Virus record (IMG/VR): IMGVR_UViG_3300021420_000016 | Location: 1-64,000 of that record | DNA length: 64,000 nucleotides | DNA from: a virus | Reading direction: 5' to 3' (one strand) | Shown: piece after piece, positions 7,502 to 15,119 of the stretch | Layout: each line of letters opens with the position of its first letter | Position numbering within the stretch: position 1 is the first letter of the stretch | Translations under genes and position numbers: made by a program | The notes under the pieces: generated by a model | Database searches by the model: none | What the model was told of the DNA's origin: nothing | Seen by the model: only the letters and a program-made list of their open reading frames with translations

Positions 7502-8020
7502 ATGCGCGTCACGGTGGAAGACGGCACCGGCAAGCGAGTCGTCATCGACGGGGACGCCCCCGAGGCGGCCAAAAGCGCCTGGGACGGCGCAGGCTTCGCC
7601 GGCGTGCTCATCAAGTCCGCGCCCGAACGCCGTTACACTCTGTGCGTCGCCTACCCCGCCATGAAAGCCGACGTCAAAGTAGCCCAGGACGGCTACCGGG
7701 ACTTCGTCGGCCCCGACGCCCTCGAAGACGCCGCCTGGTCCTATCTCACCAAGGGCGCCGAAGTCGGCCTGTGGCATTCCGACGGCACCGACGGCGCCGG
7801 CACCTGCGTCGAGTCTTACATCTACCGCGGACCCGACTGGTCCATACCCGTCAAAGGCGGCACCCAGGTCGTCAAAGCGGGGGACTGGCTCGTCGGCATC
7901 GTCTGGTCGAAAGACGCCTGGCCGCTCGTCCTGAAGGGCCACATCAACGGTGTGTCCATGCAAGGCGGCGCCGCCCGCCGCCGCCCCACACCCGAATCCC
8001 TCGCCCAGCTCAGGAGGTAG
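7502..8020 (+). CDS. XkdF-like putative prohead serine protease
   Basis: VAYP...DGYRDFV...LEDAAW...VGLWH...VESYIY...GDWLVG...INGVSMQG. Confidence 0.85.
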   Translation: MRVTVEDGTGKRVVIDGDAPEAAKSAWDGAGFAGVLIKSAPERRYTLCVAYPAMKADVKVAQDGYRDFVGPDALEDAAWSYLTKGAEVGLWHSDGTDGAGTCVESYIYRGPDWSIPVKGGTQVVKAGDWLVGIVWSKDAWPLVLKGHINGVSMQGGAARRRPTPESLAQLRR

Positions 8021-8023
8021 ACC

Positions 8024-10597
8024 ATGACCCACCCCCTGTTCGCCGGCGAAGACGAAGACGAGGCCCTCAAAGACACCGACGGCATCACCGAAATCATCCA
8101 GCTCGACCCCAGCCGCATGGACGGCGTGTTCGCACCCGCGAACGGGGCCCCATTCCTGCTCATCAAGTCCATCGCCAACAGCACGGGGGGTGCCGCGATG
8201 ACGGCCGCCGCGACCGAAACCGACATCGAACTGACGGAGGAGGCCGCCGCCGGGCCAGGCACCGAAACCGCCAAGGGGCAGGCACCACCCGCCGAAGGGG
8301 AAGCCGCCAAGGACTCCACCGACGGCGACAACGGCGAAGCGGACGAGGGCGCCGAAGGCGAAACCGACGACGACGGGGGAGCCGAAGCCGACGCTGGCGC
8401 CGCCAAAGCCGCCACCCCGGAGCCGCCGCACGTGACCAAGGCCGCGATCAAGGCCGCCCGCAGCGCTTACGAGACCGCCCGCCGCGAGTACGACGCCGCC
8501 GAGCCCACCACCAAAGGCGCCATGGACGGCACCGACGTCCTCCGCGCCCGCGCCGACTGGAACAAGTGGCGCGAACTCGGCAAATCCGAAGGCCTCGACG
8601 GCACCGAAACCGGCCGCGCCCACTGGGTCGCCAAACACCTCGCCGAGGACGCAACCCCGGAGCTCACCCTGGGCGACGAGGTGATCAAGGCCGAGGAGAG
8701 CGTCTACAAGCGCAAGTTCACCACCGCGCAGCGCCGCAAAGCCGCCAGTGCAGGCCACGCCCTGGACGACGGCAGTTACCCCATCGAAAACGCCGGCGAC
8801 CTCGACAACGCCGCCCACCTCGCCCGCTCCGGCCACGGCAACGTCGCCGGCGCCAAGCGCCTCATCGCCCGCCGCGCCAAAGAACTCGGCGTGTCCAACC
8901 CCCTGTCCGAGGACAAGGAGCCGGTGGGTGCCAGTAAGGCAGCCGAGCCTGAGATGGCCGAAGAAACCACTACCACCACTGCGGCACCCCCGCTGGACCC
9001 GGCCGAGGCGGTGGAGAAGGCCGCCGCGGCGGGACTGATCAGCCGCGAAGTCGCCGACTCCCTCCTGGCCAAGGTCAAGCGCGGCGTCCCCGCCACGACA
9101 CAGCCCGCCGGGGCGCACCGCGAGCCCGACGGCTCCTACGTCGAATCCCTCGAACACGACGCCAGCCTGCCCAGCGACAGCGACGGCAGCTCCGACCACA
9201 TCCCCGCACCCGTCGCCGAAGCCGGCACGATCCCCCCGGCGAACGCGAACACCAGCGTGATGGCCGAGCGCGCGGGCAAATCCGCCCCGTACTCGGTGCA
9301 GCGGATGCACGACGCCCTATGCCCCGCCTACGACGAAGCCGACGTGATCGAGGCCTACCCGGCACTGAAGTCCGTCATGGACGCGGTCGACGGCGTCTGG
9401 TTCGAGGCGCAGGCCGCCTGGAAGCAGGCCGAGGGCAAGGCAAAGAAAGCCGCCAAGCTGACCGCCATCGCCAAAGCCGCCGAGAGCCTCCACGACGCCG
9501 ACCCCGCCGCCCTCGCCGACGCCCGCGCCGGCCTGCGCAAGGCGTTCACCGACGCCTACCCCGACACCAAGATCCGCCCCCAGTCCGGGATCAGCCCGTC
9601 CTCATTCCACCGGTCCTGGATCACCGCAGGCCACGAAGCGAACTCCCCGGCCATCACCGGCACCCAAGCCGCCTCCCCGGCACCCCCCGCGTCCCACGTG
9701 CCCGAGCCGCAGCAGTTCCAGCGCGGCAACCTCACCGCCGGCCACGAAACCCCCTCCCCGGGCGACCACGGGCCCAACAACCCTAACCCGCCCGGATCCT
9801 CCGGCAACGACTACTACTCCACCTCCGAGCAGATGATGGCCGCCGCCGCGATGCGTTCCGTCCACGACCACATCCAGGCCACCTTCGCCGGATGCTGCCC
9901 CATGGCCCCGGCCCGCCACGCCCTCCCCACCGGCCCGGGAATGGGCGCCACCAGCACACCGGAAAAGAAGGTCCCCATGTCCATGGGAGGCATCCCCACC
10001 GTCGGCAAATCCGAAAACGGCACCCTCGATTCACAGGCCCTCGCGGACCTCGCCGCGGCCCTCGTGCAGATCGCCAAGACCGCCACCCCCGACAGTGACA
10101 GCGACGGAGACGGCAAGGCGTTCGGCGGCAACCAGGCACCCCCGTTCGGCAAGAAAAAGAAGGGCAAAGGCAAGGCGAACAAAGCAGAACTGATCGCCGC
10201 CCTCAAAGAAGCCTCCGAAGCCGGCGCCCGCGCCGCCCTCGACGCGATGAAAGCCCACGGAGACGGCGCTGCCGTCCAGGCCGTCGTCGCCGAGCAACTC
10301 CGCGAAATCGGCGCCCGATACGACTCCCAGCTCTCCGACCTCACCAAGCAGGTCGAAGAACTGGGCTCCCAGCCCGACCCGGCGCAGGCCCCCGTGCGAG
10401 GCCAAATGAGCCGGCCGGAGACCGCAGCTCCCGTGGAGAAGCGCTCCCTGATCGACGAGCACCGCGCCGCCAAAGCCGCACAGGCCGAAGCCGAGCGCGA
10501 GGCTTTCACCGACTACGTCCGCATGCAAGCGCAGTCGGCTGACCCCAAGGTCCGTTCCCGCGCCGAGGAGGTGCTTCGCACTATCCCGGCGCCCTAG
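8024..10597 (+). CDS. Large capsid scaffold/maturation-associated protein (857 aa)
   Basis: SD AGGAGG; N-terminal PAN-xx-PFLLIKS motif, internal DGSYPIEN...IARRAKELG domain, acidic and low-complexity linkers, coiled-coil C-terminus; lies between protease and capsid. Confidence 0.7.
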   Translation: MTHPLFAGEDEDEALKDTDGITEIIQLDPSRMDGVFAPANGAPFLLIKSIANSTGGAAMTAAATETDIELTEEAAAGPGTETAKGQAPPAEGEAAKDSTDGDNGEADEGAEGETDDDGGAEADAGAAKAATPEPPHVTKAAIKAARSAYETARREYDAAEPTTKGAMDGTDVLRARADWNKWRELGKSEGLDGTETGRAHWVAKHLAEDATPELTLGDEVIKAEESVYKRKFTTAQRRKAASAGHALDDGSYPIENAGDLDNAAHLARSGHGNVAGAKRLIARRAKELGVSNPLSEDKEPVGASKAAEPEMAEETTTTTAAPPLDPAEAVEKAAAAGLISREVADSLLAKVKRGVPATTQPAGAHREPDGSYVESLEHDASLPSDSDGSSDHIPAPVAEAGTIPPANANTSVMAERAGKSAPYSVQRMHDALCPAYDEADVIEAYPALKSVMDAVDGVWFEAQAAWKQAEGKAKKAAKLTAIAKAAESLHDADPAALADARAGLRKAFTDAYPDTKIRPQSGISPSSFHRSWITAGHEANSPAITGTQAASPAPPASHVPEPQQFQRGNLTAGHETPSPGDHGPNNPNPPGSSGNDYYSTSEQMMAAAAMRSVHDHIQATFAGCCPMAPARHALPTGPGMGATSTPEKKVPMSMGGIPTVGKSENGTLDSQALADLAAALVQIAKTATPDSDSDGDGKAFGGNQAPPFGKKKKGKGKANKAELIAALKEASEAGARAALDAMKAHGDGAAVQAVVAEQLREIGARYDSQLSDLTKQVEELGSQPDPAQAPVRGQMSRPETAAPVEKRSLIDEHRAAKAAQAEAEREAFTDYVRMQAQSADPKVRSRAEEVLRTIPAP

Positions 10598-10612
10598 AAC
10601 CACGAACGCGCC

Positions 10613-10636
10613 GGCCCCCTTTTGTGGGGCCTTTTT
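10613..10636 (+). terminator. Intrinsic terminator-like hairpin just upstream of the capsid gene
   Basis: GGCCCC-7nt-GGGGCC-TTTTT. Confidence 0.6.
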
Positions 10637-10651
10637 CATGCCGTAGGAGGC

Positions 10652-11164
10652 ATGATGTCTGAAAACGAAGTGGCAATCCCTTACGGGAGCGCCGCCACCC
10701 CCGTCCTGGAAAGGACGGGCACCGACACCCGCTGGCACGCCGATGCGGACGTCGAGCGTTACCGCGCCCCGGACCTGATGCTGTCGGACAAAATGCCGAC
10801 GCTGGTCAAGGGCGCAGGATATGCCCGGGTCGGCGGCAATATGCCGCTGTCCGACGACGAGCAGATCTTCCGCCGTTCCATGAAGGCGGAGGACGCTTTC
10901 CGTGCCGCCATTTCCAAGGGCGTCAACGAGCCCCGCGAGGTGCTCAAGGGCCTCAAGCCCGAATTCGCTGGGCAGTTCGCCGCCTTTATGACGGCCGCGC
11001 CACAGAACCAGGGGCTGCGGCAACTGGCCAACCAGTTCGCCTCCGCCCTGAAGGACGTCCCTGGCGTCGACCAGGACGTCCTGAAGTCCATTACCACCAC
11101 GTCGCCGCTTGGGACAGGGTTCGTGCCCTTCGATCTCGTCGCCCCGAGCTCTCTCATCTACCCT
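10652..11164 (+). CDS. Major capsid protein exon 1
   Basis: Ends FDLVAPSSLIYP at ...TACCCT. Confidence 0.85.
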
Positions 11165-14100
11165 GGATGATCATGGGGCACTATGCCGTGAGGCATAGTC
11201 GCAAACCCCCGAGAATTGCTGGGACACCCACACCTACCTGCTTATGCCACAGCGTGAGGCGAAAGCCTGGCCGCGACGGCCTGAGAAATAGGCAGCAGGG
11301 GCAATCAGCAGCCGAGCCGCCCTGGCGCAAGCCGAGCGGAAGGTTCAGAGACTAGGCACGGGGGACCTGCTCGCGCAGGCCAAGGAATAGTCCGATCTGC
11401 ATGGAGACATGCAGAGCCATCCAGAAATGCGATGGCCCGCCGCAGTAAGCGGCGAGTAACAATTTTGGTGTATAGCCCTCTGCGCAACAAGCTCCCCCGA
11501 GTCCCGGGTCAGGGCGCGTCGCGCAGGCGCAAGGTCATCACCGGCGTCTCCGGCTCCCAGACCGGCCCGAGCGGCGGCAAGTTCGTCCGCCTCGGCATCC
11601 CGGAACTGGTCCAGTCCGGCGGCGCGATCGGCGGCACCAGTTCCGCAGTGAACTGGCCGCTCAACCTCCCCGGCACCGGAACCCAGGATGCCGTGGACCT
11701 CACCGTCCCTTGTCTAAACTAGGTAGGGGCCTCGCCCGGTGACGGGCGAGTGAAAACCGCGAGAACTGCTGGAACACCCGTATCACCTGCTCACGCCACA
11801 GCGTGGCCCGAAAGGGCGAGCGCGACGGCTTGAGAAGTGAGCAGCAGGGGCAATCAGCAGCCGAGGGCCTAAGGGCAACGCGCCTACGGTCAAGGTTCAG
11901 AGACTATGTACGCGGGATCTGGCATAATTGAATAATGGGCAACTGGTCAATGCGCGCCTTCGCCCCCGCCGAACAGCTTGACATCACCACCCGGTACGAC
12001 GCGGGGGAGAGCGTCAACGCTCTCCGCATCGAGTACAAGTGCGCGCCGGAAGCCATCCAGGCAACCCTGCGAGCTGCGGGAATCAAGCTGAGAACGCGGG
12101 CCGAATCGCAGCGCACCCCCCAGTTCCGTCAGCAATCGCGGGAGGCGCTGCTGCAGCGGCTCCCATGCATGCGAGGCCCGGCAACGGATACGCCTATCGA
12201 GCGGCGCCTATGCGACGCCCTGATGGCGGCGGGGATCGGATTCACAACCCAGTCCCTGCTGCTGGATCGCTACTTGGTGGATATAGAACTCCATCAGGCC
12301 CCTATCGTTCTTGAGGCCGACGGTGCGCAGCACACCCTGCGAGACCAGAGGATTAAGGACGCCGAACGCGACACCGCGCTGACTGCGGCCGGTTACCGGG
12401 TATTCCGGTTCACCGGCAGCAAGATCAACCACGACGCCGCCGTTTGCGTCAGGGAAGTCGTCGCCGCTTGCGGCCTGACGCCTGACGGCGATCCGGTCTA
12501 CGACATCCGTACACGGTTCGCCGGGCCGCTCCACCCACGCTGGACGCGGGTCAAGTTCACCTGCGAGCAGTGCGGCACGGAGTTCTGGAAGCCGCCGTCA
12601 CACCGCGCGTTTGGCCACGTCTTCTGCAAGCAGAGGTGTTACGGCGACTGGTTGCACGAACATCCTGAAGTCAACACCCACCGGCAGCGCCGCAGCCAGC
12701 GCGACTGGACGGGACTTGCCGAACTGTACGGCGCCGGGATGTCTATCAAGCAGCTAGGCATCCACTTCGGGTGCAGCAACAGGATGATCACGTCAGCAAT
12801 GCGCGACCAGAGCATCCCGGTCCGGCCAATAGGAGGCCGCCGCGTCAAGGGCGGGTTTTATGCGGCCGGGATCGCGCCATCGTAAAAGCCAGATCAAGAT
12901 ATAGTTCCGATCTTACGCGAGAGCGTGAGAGGACGGCGGAAACGACCGTCCCCGCCAGGTCATGCTGGTGAGTAACAACATGTACCGCTTCTGGGGATTG
13001 TCCGAGAACCTGAGCTGGCTCAGCCAGTTCGAGGGTTGGTCTATTTAACTGGCCCCCCTGCGGAGCGATCCGCAGGTGCAAACCGCACCGTAACGGTGAA
13101 CCCCACCGAGCTCGCCGGGGAATACCGTGGAAACCTCGCATCAGGGTTCCGTAGAGAGCAAACGTGTGGCACCTGCCACGGGGGGCTGTCCCGATGTCAA
13201 CGGGGACAGCAAACCGCAGGTGAAGTTGTGCTCCGGCCTGCACCGATGGAAAAGGTGCAGAGTCATCCAGAAATGAGATGACCCCCGCCTAAGGAATGGC
13301 GGGAGTAACAAACCGCAAGGGTTCGAGGACATTTCTGCACTGGCAAATCTTTTGCTGCTGCAGGAGTTCATGTTGAACGAAGAGGCGAGCCATCTGGGCG
13401 CCACTTCCATCGCCCTCTCCGCGCCGGCCGCGCCAACCCTCACCGCGAGGACGGCAAACACCGGAGAAACCGCGCTGACCGGTGTCACCACGAACGTCTT
13501 CGTGGAAGTCACCGCAGCCACCTTCTTCGGGGAAACCGCGGCCGGATCGTCGGCTTCCGTGGCCTGGTCCTCGGGCCAGGTTGTGGACGTGCAGATCGCA
13601 CCCGTCAAGGGCGCGATGTTCTACAAGATCTACACGACCACGGGGGCCTCCGCGGGCACCTACTACCTCAACGCCAACAACGTCGGCGGCCTGTACTACA
13701 CCCTCCAGGGTGCACTGCCCACCACGGGCACGCAGGCCCCGGCTTCCGATACCGGCACCTCCTCGGCCAACGACCAGGAGGGGCTGTTCTCGGTCCTGTC
13801 CGGCAACGCCGCGTCCGGCGGGTCGAACATCTATCCCGCGAACTGGGCTGCCGGTTACTTTACCCAGTCGGTTGGTGACACTCTGAAGACCTCCGTGCTG
13901 AACACGGCCCTTCAGCAGCTGTGGGACGGCACCGGCTCCGGCGTGGGGACCTATGGTTCGTACCGCGCCGACCCTGCGGAGATCATCGCCGAAGGTGGCG
14001 ACGTCGCCCGCCTGTCCAATGACATCGTGCAGCTTGGGGCTGCCACCAACTACCGCCTGTTCGTGGAGCAGTCGGAAGTGCCTGGTGTGCGCCTTGGTGC

Positions 14101-14686
14101 TGCCGTGTCGGAATTCCAGAATCCCGTGACGAGGTCCGTCGTCCGCGTGGTGGTCCACCCGTGGCTGCCGCAGGGCTCGGCTCTCCTGATGAGTTACACG
14201 ATGCCGTTCGCGTGGAGCAACGTCTCCAACGTGGTCGAGTTCGTGGCGGTCCAGGACTACCTCACTATGAGTAACTAGGGGCCTACGCAGAGTGATCTGC
14301 GTAGGGATGCGCACTGTTCGGGGAACCCCTCCGGAAATCACCGGGGAATCCCGAGCGTCGGCGATGCCTGCCGGCGTGTAGAGACTGTATGTGCGCCCTC
14401 TGTGTGACGGACGTAAATGCGAGGCATTACGTGCTTACGGCCGCAGAGGAAGAGACAGGCCGATCTCATGCAATGGCAAAGCATGAGAGGCTGGCAGAAA
14501 TGACCAGCCCCGCCACTTCGGTGGCGAGTAACAATATGCAGTATCTCCTGGCCCGTGATCGACGCCAGCTTCCGCTACAGCATGTTCATGCTGGGCGCGC
14601 TGGTCGTCAACGCTCCGTTCTACTGCTCGCTCATTCAGGGCCTGCAGAAGACCGACCGGTCCGGTTCCACCGGCACCTGGTCCTGA
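10652..14686 (+). CDS. Major capsid protein, spliced from 5 exons: join(10652..11164,11468..11710,12983..13036,13316..14262,14539..14686), about 634 aa
   Basis: SD AGGAGG (start 10652 or 10655); removing four U|...G introns gives an uninterrupted ORF: LIYP|VYSPLRNKLPRV, LTVP|YRFWGLSE, QFEG|QGFEDISAL, QDYL|SISWPVID; capsid position after protease and scaffold. Confidence 0.88.
11165..11467 (+). ncRNA. Group I intron 1 (303 nt, IC-like core with P5abc extension, no ORF)
   Basis: P AATTGCTGGGAC 11214, Q AATCAGCAGC 11303, R GTTCAGAGACTA 11343, S AAGGAATAGTCC 11382; P1 CCCU/GGGG; P3 CCCCCG/CGGGGG; GNRA-capped P2 and P9; terminal G. Confidence 0.93.
11468..11710 (+). CDS. Major capsid protein exon 2 (81 aa)
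   Basis: VYSPLRNKLPRV...AVDLTVP. Confidence 0.85.
11711..12982 (+). mobile_element. Group I intron 2 (1272 nt) with a homing endonuclease gene in the P8 loop
   Basis: P AACTGCTGGAAC 11764, Q 11852, R GTTCAGAGACTA 11895, S AAGATATAGTTCC 12896; IGS GGTA-GGGG pairs 3' exon TACC and 5' exon CCCT; P8 GATCTGGC/GCCAGATC brackets the ORF. Confidence 0.93.
11935..12885 (+). CDS. Intron-encoded Vsr/DUF559-type (EDxHD-like) endonuclease with HTH and Zn-finger domains
   Basis: TPIERRL...YLVD...LEADGAQH...DAERD...GYRVFRF; CEQC...FCKQRC; HTH-like segments at both ends. Confidence 0.88.
   Translation: MGNWSMRAFAPAEQLDITTRYDAGESVNALRIEYKCAPEAIQATLRAAGIKLRTRAESQRTPQFRQQSREALLQRLPCMRGPATDTPIERRLCDALMAAGIGFTTQSLLLDRYLVDIELHQAPIVLEADGAQHTLRDQRIKDAERDTALTAAGYRVFRFTGSKINHDAAVCVREVVAACGLTPDGDPVYDIRTRFAGPLHPRWTRVKFTCEQCGTEFWKPPSHRAFGHVFCKQRCYGDWLHEHPEVNTHRQRRSQRDWTGLAELYGAGMSIKQLGIHFGCSNRMITSAMRDQSIPVRPIGGRRVKGGFYAAGIAPS
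12983..13036 (+). CDS. Major capsid protein exon 3 (54-nt mini-exon)
   Basis: YRFWGLSENLSWLSQFEG; absent from the ORF track. Confidence 0.85.
13037..13315 (+). ncRNA. Group I intron 3 (279 nt, compact core, no ORF)
   Basis: P1 GGGU/GCCC; P2 with GCGA loop; P3 CCGCAC/GTGTGG; P4 ACGGT/ACCGT; P7 GAGAGCA/TGCTCC (compensatory variant); terminal G. Confidence 0.88.
13316..14262 (+). CDS. Major capsid protein exon 4
   Basis: QGFEDISALANLLLLQEFMLNEE...VHPWLPQG...VQDY. Confidence 0.88.
14263..14538 (+). ncRNA. Group I intron 4 (276 nt, compact core, no ORF)
   Basis: 5' exon ends TACCT, IGS GGG; P2 with GUGA loop; P4 TCGGG/CCCGA; R GTAGAGACTG; S AAGAGACAGGCC; shared 3' module; terminal G. Confidence 0.85.
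14539..14686 (+). CDS. Major capsid protein exon 5
   Basis: SISWPVIDASFRYSMFMLGALVVNAPFYCSLIQGL...stop, followed by a terminator. Confidence 0.85.
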
Positions 14687-14696
14687 AACCCGGCGA

Positions 14697-14729
14697 AGGC
14701 CCGGGCCGGGCGTTCCCCGGCCCGGGCCT
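14697..14729. terminator. Bidirectional terminator hairpin after the capsid gene
   Basis: 14-bp perfect IR AGGCCCGGGCCGGG/CCCGGCCCGGGCCT between convergent genes. Confidence 0.75.
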
Positions 14730-14747
14730 CCCGGCTCCCTTGATGCT

Positions 14748-15119
14748 TTAGATCATCGGGCTCTTTCTGATGATGCTGAAGTCCTCGTCCGCCGGGCCCC
14801 GGTTGTCGGCGTGGAACGCGAGTGACGACTGGCCGCCGAGCGCGTTGACGCAGGCGATGCACAGGTCTTCATCGGCGAACTCGTCCCCGCCGACGTAGAC
14901 CCCTGGCCAGTACTCATCGGCGCCGACTTGGAGCTTCGTGCCGCACAGCATGGGCGTCCGCTCGAACATCGCCTCTATGAACCGCTTAGTGTCGGCGGGG
15001 TCGTGTGGCTTGTATATGGTCACCACTTCACCCGGCATCCAGGGCAGGATGTGGACGCGGCCGGTCTTGGTGTTGCGGACGAACTCCAGCCGGCCGTCGG
15101 GTGCGATGCGGGCGCTCAT
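14748..15119 (-). CDS. Hypothetical protein
   Basis: 123-aa ORF, ATGA coupling, good codon bias. Confidence 0.65.
   Translation of the reverse strand: MSARIAPDGRLEFVRNTKTGRVHILPWMPGEVVTIYKPHDPADTKRFIEAMFERTPMLCGTKLQVGADEYWPGVYVGGDEFADEDLCIACVNALGGQSSLAFHADNRGPADEDFSIIRKSPMI

Follow-up and report, generated by a model that had tools for sequence, protein, structure and literature searches.

How does a phage genome encode its major capsid protein (MCP) when gene callers report only fragments of the gene? The question is raised by positions 10,652 to 14,686 of a 64,000-nucleotide stretch of viral DNA, the first 64 kb of the IMG/VR virus record IMGVR_UViG_3300021420_000016 (154,048 bp, estimated to be 98% complete, 68% G+C). 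This stretch is hereafter called the window, and all positions refer to it. With high confidence, we interpret the region as a single gene for a capsid protein of the HK97 fold into which four mobile group I introns have inserted. The introns were acquired independently and are best seen as selfish elements, and their splicing would yield an mRNA for a protein of 634 aa.

Joining of the five exons (Table 1) gave 1905 nt coding for 634 aa without internal stops, as had been claimed in an initial annotation of the window. The borders proposed there for the four intervening segments were exact, with a T before each segment and a G at the end of each, and the four junction peptides predicted from them (IYPVYSPLR, TVPYRFW, FEGQGFED, and DYLSISWP) were all present in the joined translation. 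The 54-nt third exon was indeed invisible to gene callers, which gave open reading frames (ORFs) of 182, 96, and 308 aa in the region and nothing for exon 3. Introns account for 2130 of the 4035 nt between positions 10652 and 14686 (53%). When the whole 154-kb genome was searched with the family profile and by tblastn, the five exons were the only matches; thus, this is the sole capsid gene of the genome.

When exon 4 was used as the query of an exhaustive HMMER search, 230 relatives were returned, many of which were uninterrupted proteins of 540–635 aa. Comparison with such intron-less homologues, which had been suggested as a check of the initial annotation, was performed for 55 of them, and the joined exons were collinear with these proteins without gaps. 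A single BLASTP high-scoring segment pair spanned all four junctions. In the multiple alignment, there were zero gaps at the four junctions, and the 18-aa segment encoded by the micro-exon corresponded to a conserved stretch. The homologue P0001 was 68% identical to the spliced protein over 601 columns, with an alignment running from residue 38 to the end and containing no unexplained gaps, so that further mini-introns lacking a core need not be assumed. Exons 2 and 4 also matched PHROG 13692 collinearly. All junctions fell within the top conserved motifs of the family, namely IYPVY(S/T)PLRNK, (V/I)PY(K/R)F, GQGFED, and VQDYxSIxWPVID.

The product of the gene is predicted to be an HK97-fold MCP. 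The AlphaFold model of P0001 (55 aligned homologues) had a predicted local distance difference test score of 78.5, and the top Foldseek matches of this model were the capsid proteins of SPO1, Pa223, SU10, and HK97 (probability 1.00, E-values down to 7e-11), along with numerous others; this is the fold expected in the initial annotation. The match to Pfam SU10_MCP was weak (22.4 bits vs. a cut-off of 24.1), and the matches of the MCP family profile to PDB sequences did not exceed chance level. The gene is located downstream of an XkdF-type protease and of an 857-aa low-complexity protein.

All four segments separating the exons are group I introns. With the Rfam model RF00028, intron 1 scored 55.2 bits (gathering score 50), and intron 2 gave a partial match over P4–P6 (20.8 bits), its ORF splitting the model; both the 5′ half and the 3′ half of intron 2 were recovered with nhmmer. 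In all four introns, a P1 helix containing the U•G pair at the splice site could be drawn; its length was 10 bp in intron 2, 8 bp in intron 3, and only 4 bp in both intron 1 and intron 4. In each intron, the frame of the preceding exon ran into a stop within 2–6 codons (in intron 1, the stop is formed by intron nt 4–6). The terminal G was also found in nine relatives, including the intron of mycobacteriophage Baka, for which splicing has been demonstrated. The sequence GAGTAACAA occurred four times in the 154-kb genome, both strands taken together, each time at the 3′ end of an intron, which is far from chance. Searches of this genome with the family profile, Rfam, and GAGTAACAA revealed four intron copies and no others. 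Intron 3 was approximately 69% identical to the segment inserted into gp34 in Cluster J mycobacteriophages (Baka/Optimus) and had the same 3′ tail as the Baka intron, GAGTAACAAACCG. Splicing of the insert in the Baka tail gene gp34 was established by reverse transcription PCR (PMC3706429).

The RNA structure was reconstructed from introns of other genomes only, and the window introns were threaded on the resulting consensus structures afterwards. A joint alignment misaligned the P4–P7 core and was replaced by separate alignments for the two core subtypes that exist in the family, one with a compact P4–P6 region and the other with this region extended by a GAAA-capped arm. P1, P2 (with a GNRA loop), P3, P7, P8, P9, P9.1, P9.2, and the GUAACA tail are common to both. 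For the compact subtype (18 non-window sequences), RNAalifold predicted P2–P6, P9, P9.1, and P9.2, with compensatory changes in 33 of 46 pairs. After addition of P7, the pseudoknot partner of P3, and of P8, 93.9% of 1042 cells were paired, compared to 33–38% in the control with the partners slid by 1–3 columns. Double changes were observed at 42 of 60 pairs, and none of 500 shuffles reached the observed values. The G-binding G-C pair of P7 was invariant in all 18 relatives and was present in all four window introns. Every helix of the compact structure formed in intron 3; in intron 4, pairing was complete in P3 (6/6), P4 (6/6), P5 (4/4), P8 (8/8), P9 (7/7), and P9.1 (8/8) and reached 5/6 in P7. 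Introns 1 and 2 fitted the larger-core structure (10 non-window sequences) almost perfectly. The P/Q/R/S-type core elements noticed in the initial annotation were found in all four introns, and its division of the gene into five exons and four group I introns is supported by threading, covariation, and homology. The P9.1 loop CAGAAAUG and the GUAACA tail were invariant or nearly so across both subtypes, while the surrounding stems covaried freely.

Several points weigh against this interpretation. Introns 3 and 4 had no match to RF00028 even at an E-value of 10; the search with the Rfam group I model, proposed in the initial annotation, therefore identified intron 1, recognized intron 2 in part, and missed the other two. 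The internal guide sequence had been described as complementary to both flanking exons, which held in all four introns on the 5′ side, where P1 forms with its U•G pair, but only partly on the 3′ side, where the P10 pairings with the downstream exon were short (approximately 4, 3, 2, and ≤3 bp for introns 1–4, read from the sequence by eye). The P1 helix of intron 4 has a stability of just about −2 kcal/mol and an A·G lies beside the G-binding pair of its P7, so the efficiency of self-splicing of this intron is uncertain. The fold was predicted for the homologue P0001, which is 68% identical to the joined protein. Finally, the record is a metagenome assembly, so intron-less variants are possible in the population.

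The missing Rfam scores of introns 3 and 4 would also agree with the inserts being something other than group I introns: inteins, group II introns, translational bypass elements, or assembly chimeras, or with the coding pieces being separate genes. To this we assign next to no probability because the covariation-supported core with the P3/P7 pseudoknot is specific to group I introns. Inteins were ruled out by the exon-frame stops within 2–6 codons and by the splitting of a codon by intron 4. Group II introns were ruled out by the small size of the ORF-less inserts (276–303 nt), by the lack of a reverse transcriptase, and by the group I score of intron 1. Assembly chimeras were ruled out by homologous inserts at the same sites in independent assemblies, and the bypass reading was rejected along with these three.

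The features of intron 4 also bear on whether the introns are still functional. At least one of them, likeliest intron 4, might no longer self-splice, leaving the phage defective or dependent on a trans-acting helper such as a host protein or a neighbouring ribozyme. Such partial decay would be in line with the failure of Rfam to detect introns 3 and 4, with the 4-bp P1 and the A·G in P7 of intron 4, and with the loss of the endonuclease from three of the four introns. We nevertheless judge it highly improbable: the core helices are all intact and carry compensatory changes, the exons are clearly under purifying selection with neither stops nor frameshifts, the genome is estimated to be nearly complete, and the most similar intron, from contig L197, has the same A·G, which is thus tolerated in that lineage. 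The A·G replaces an A-U pair and was found in intron 4 and in this closest relative (L197:1–284), the other 17 members having A-U. In L016, an A·C occupies the P7 position where intron 4 has A·G.

Table 1. Coordinates of the MCP gene, its introns, and adjacent features in the window
Feature	Position	Strand	Remarks
Head maturation protease (Peptidase_S78_2 / XkdF-like)	7502–8020	+	context for the capsid assignment
MCP exon 1	10652–11164	+	513 nt, 171 codons; start ATG 10652 or 10655; Shine-Dalgarno sequence AGGAGG at 10645–10650
Intron 1	11165–11467	+	303 nt, without ORF; larger-core subtype (extended P5 arm, GAAA loop)
MCP exon 2	11468–11710	+	243 nt, 81 codons
Intron 2	11711–12982	+	1272 nt; larger-core subtype; endonuclease ORF in P8 loop
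P8 strands of intron 2	11916–11923 / 12888–12895	+	flank the ORF-bearing loop
Intron-encoded DUF559 ORF	11935–12885	+	316 aa; putative homing endonuclease
MCP exon 3 (micro-exon)	12983–13036	+	54 nt, 18 codons; tblastn match; kept in all aligned homologues
Intron 3	13037–13315	+	279 nt, without ORF; compact (Baka-like) subtype
MCP exon 4	13316–14262	+	947 nt; terminates in codon phase 2
Intron 4	14263–14538	+	276 nt, without ORF; compact subtype; 4-bp P1, A·G in P7
MCP exon 5	14539–14686	+	148 nt including TGA stop
GC-rich 14-bp hairpin	14697–14729	+	10 nt past the capsid stop; gave rise to spurious hairpin matches in Rfam; probable role in transcription termination or RNA stability

Homologous introns, at least dozens of them, were found in the relatives of the capsid gene and by scanning IMG/VR with the family signature AGAG-N5-CAGAAATG-N12-42-GTAACA. 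Among the loci retrieved, the introns were also present in capsid genes belonging to phrog_1357, an MCP family unrelated to that of the window (contigs L107, L124, and L149). Each window intron was 70–81% identical to an intron in another genome and 53–68% identical to its neighbours in the gene. Intron 2 RNA was 81% identical to the intron located at the same site in L147, intron 3 was 78% identical to an intron at the identical site in L082, and intron 4 was closest to the L197 intron (72%). Having closer kin in other genomes than in the same gene, the four introns were acquired separately. Recent duplication of one intron within the gene was ruled out on the same grounds.

The sites themselves were variably occupied. 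Among the 80 best-matching IMG/VR relatives, 76 had no insertion at all. In other relatives, introns were located on the downstream side of site 1 (by 2 and 14 nt) and of site 4 (by approximately 7 and 24 nt), and further insertion sites were found near residues 280–290, 546, 600, 606, and 613. Three genomes (L070:4429–5347; L147, minus strand, ~6868–5795; and the window, 11164/11165) had introns at three different positions within 14 nt of the motif IYPVY(S/T)PL, the offsets that occurred being 0, +2, and +14 nt; these introns had differing core subtypes, and two of them contained DUF559-type ORFs. Two or three family introns per approximately 1 kb were observed in L151:621–1952 (minus strand), L138:2119–2988, and L149:1872–2591, which implies very short exons between them; the L149 cluster is located in a phrog_1357-type capsid gene. 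In L215:3001–5439, a contig of an Actinomycetota metagenome-assembled genome, the match to the capsid homologue was approximately 1.3 kb longer than the coding length, as would be expected if a prophage or a bin-associated phage had an intron with an ORF there.

The distribution of the introns is relevant to the suggestion that they serve a regulatory function, with the four splicing steps acting as a checkpoint and the capsid yield following GTP, Mg2+, temperature, or the timing of infection. All four splicing events are obligatory as this is the only capsid gene, more than half of its transcript is intron, and the weak P1 and the P7 mismatch of intron 4 could be rate-limiting. However, in most relatives the same capsid protein is encoded by an intron-less gene, so no intron is needed for its function. 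Intron content differs site by site among close relatives, and the introns have nearer kin elsewhere, as is the case for selfish elements. The introns of LittleE and Baka were reported to be efficiently spliced (PMC3706429), and no regulatory element was found. Regulatory gating is, in our opinion, improbable.

The ORF of intron 2 matched Pfam DUF559, a Vsr-like PD-(D/E)xK domain, with 50.6 bits (cut-off 20.6, E = 2e-13). It also contains helix-turn-helix motifs and a Cys-rich segment and matched the endonuclease-like protein PDB 3hrl (E = 0.003). The ORF sits wholly in the P8 loop. Its best relative (49% identity) is encoded in the capsid-gene intron of L147, inserted at the same codon boundary (…GTC CCT | TAC CGC…, site 252|253), and related ORFs were detected in introns of L070, L151, and L195. 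On the basis of these similarities, the product is a putative homing endonuclease which may be active in homing. The endonuclease ORF, the insertion in conserved motifs, the presence/absence polymorphism, and the independent acquisition are features of selfish homing introns.

Taken as an array of selfish introns, the locus could operate as follows. All four introns belong to one large ‘Baka-type’ family with two core subtypes, common in soil phage contigs. The entire 4-kb unit would be transcribed, and each intron would fold into a ribozyme with helices P1–P9.2 and the P3/P7 pseudoknot. Two transesterifications of the usual kind would remove it: guanosine would attack after the exon U that forms the U•G pair in P1, and the exons would then be ligated past the terminal G; the early in-frame stop would keep ribosomes off the folding ribozyme. 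The product of splicing, which for this phage is predicted from sequence comparison, would be the capsid mRNA for 634 aa. The introns were gained independently at conserved capsid motifs. Intron 2 retains a putative homing endonuclease of the DUF559 type, and there is no ORF in introns 1, 3, and 4.

A further proposal, which we regard as doubtful, is that these introns are not neutral. The Baka-type family may have its principal arena of conflict in the capsid genes of soil actinophages, and the DUF559 endonuclease of intron 2 may cut the capsid gene of intron-less relatives that co-infect the cell; in addition, reactions between introns might skip exon 2 or exon 3 and thereby produce capsid variants or throttle head assembly. 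Interference competition of this kind was shown for an intron endonuclease of the phage PhiPA3 (PMC11620839). In the window, the last nucleotides of exons 1, 2, and 4 are CCCU, CCCU, and CCU (11160–11164, 11706–11710, and 14259–14262, respectively), and introns 1, 2, and 4 contain a GGGG guide (approximately at 11175–11181, 11725–11729, and 14277–14281). With exon ends and guides so nearly identical, cross-pairing and exon skipping are chemically conceivable. Exons 2 (81 aa) and 3 (18 aa) consist of whole numbers of codons and would leave the frame intact if skipped. Exon skipping has reportedly been observed in phage Twort.

Comparison with known systems indicates how unusual the gene is. The classical phage group I introns are those of the T4 genes td, nrdB, and nrdD and of the SPO1 DNA polymerase gene. 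The introns described here resemble them in the stop just inside the intron and in the conserved insertion sites; in both cases, P2 and P9 have GNRA loops, and a homing endonuclease may or may not be encoded. They differ in that the host gene is structural, whereas T4 and SPO1 introns reside in genes of nucleotide metabolism and replication; furthermore, P7.1/P7.2 were not seen, and an extra P9.1 hairpin with the CAGAAAUG loop and the GUAACA tail were present. The gene orf142 of the Staphylococcus phage Twort is reported to contain three group I introns (Landthaler and Shub, 1999) and is thus similar in having several self-splicing introns in one late phage gene. Twort is a low-GC Firmicutes phage, its intron lineages are different, and it has three introns in the gene vs. 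four here.

A single capsid-gene intron was proven for the Cluster J mycobacteriophage LittleE, and a capsid-gene intron of the lactococcal phage Tuc2009 is cited in the same work (PMC3706429). The Cluster J introns are similar to those of the window in belonging to high-GC actinophages, in their structural host genes, and in the exon U and the terminal G. However, Cluster J phages have one intron per gene, compared to four and a 54-nt micro-exon here, and the Cluster J endonuclease is LAGLIDADG-like, unlike the DUF559-type enzyme of intron 2. The capsid families are unrelated in sequence: a tblastn search of 50,697 records of cultured phages with exon 4 returned nothing. A search of these records with the portal-position protein was likewise negative. 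The class of the Cluster J introns was left as ‘most likely group I’ (Pope et al., 2013, PMC3706429), whereas the full core is backed by covariation here.

The closest parallel in gene organization is the MCP gene of a crAss-like Zeta-group phage (cMAG OLRF01000054), which consists of five fragments; of the four segments between these, three contain protein domains of the group I intron type (Yutin et al., 2021, PMC7886860). That phage has a Bacteroidota host, and its introns were recognized via the proteins they encode; in the window, only intron 2 has an ORF, the other three introns having been recognized via RNA structure, and both the intron and the capsid families differ from those of the crAss-like case. 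At the level of whole genomes, Jug phages have a mean of 18.5 group I introns (PMC12880540). No description of multi-intron capsid genes in actinophages was found in the literature. The term ‘exceptional’ used in the initial annotation is nevertheless too strong in view of the five-fragment MCP gene of the crAss-like phage (PMC7886860), the LittleE intron (PMC3706429), and the occurrence of the same intron family in many other IMG/VR capsid genes. The four-intron capsid gene extends the known cases; it is well supported and of a kind already known.

Prophage copies were found in the genomes of Streptomyces, Actinoallomurus, Arthrobacter, Actinomadura, Nonomuraea, and Streptosporangium; the phage therefore probably infects actinomycetes. 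The 857-aa protein encoded at 8024–10597, between the protease gene and the capsid gene, is of low complexity and rich in Ala, Glu, and Pro. It had no matches in Pfam or PHROG; its position would suit a scaffold protein or a decoration protein. Between the stop of this ORF (10597) and the start of the capsid gene (10652), a GC hairpin and a T-run directly after it (10613–10631) resemble a terminator, so the capsid gene may have its own transcript or depend on read-through. No sigma-70-like promoter was found at positions 10300–14900. The capsid gene begins with two neighbouring ATGs (10652–10657), 1 nt and 4 nt past AGGAGG, and its product has, correspondingly, 634 or 633 aa.

A four-intron capsid gene reveals no new mechanism by itself, and its significance lies in annotation and in the biology of the intron family. 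Since gene callers report only fragments, annotations of this phage and of many uncultivated relatives either misrepresent the capsid gene or lack it. Family members can be found quickly with the signature AGAG-N5-CAGAAATG-N12-42-GTAACA, and covariation-backed secondary structures are now available for Baka-type introns, the compact form of which is missed by the Rfam model. Two unrelated MCP families have been repeatedly invaded at their most conserved motifs, so that homing, the loss of endonucleases, and possible competition between phages can be studied well in these genes.

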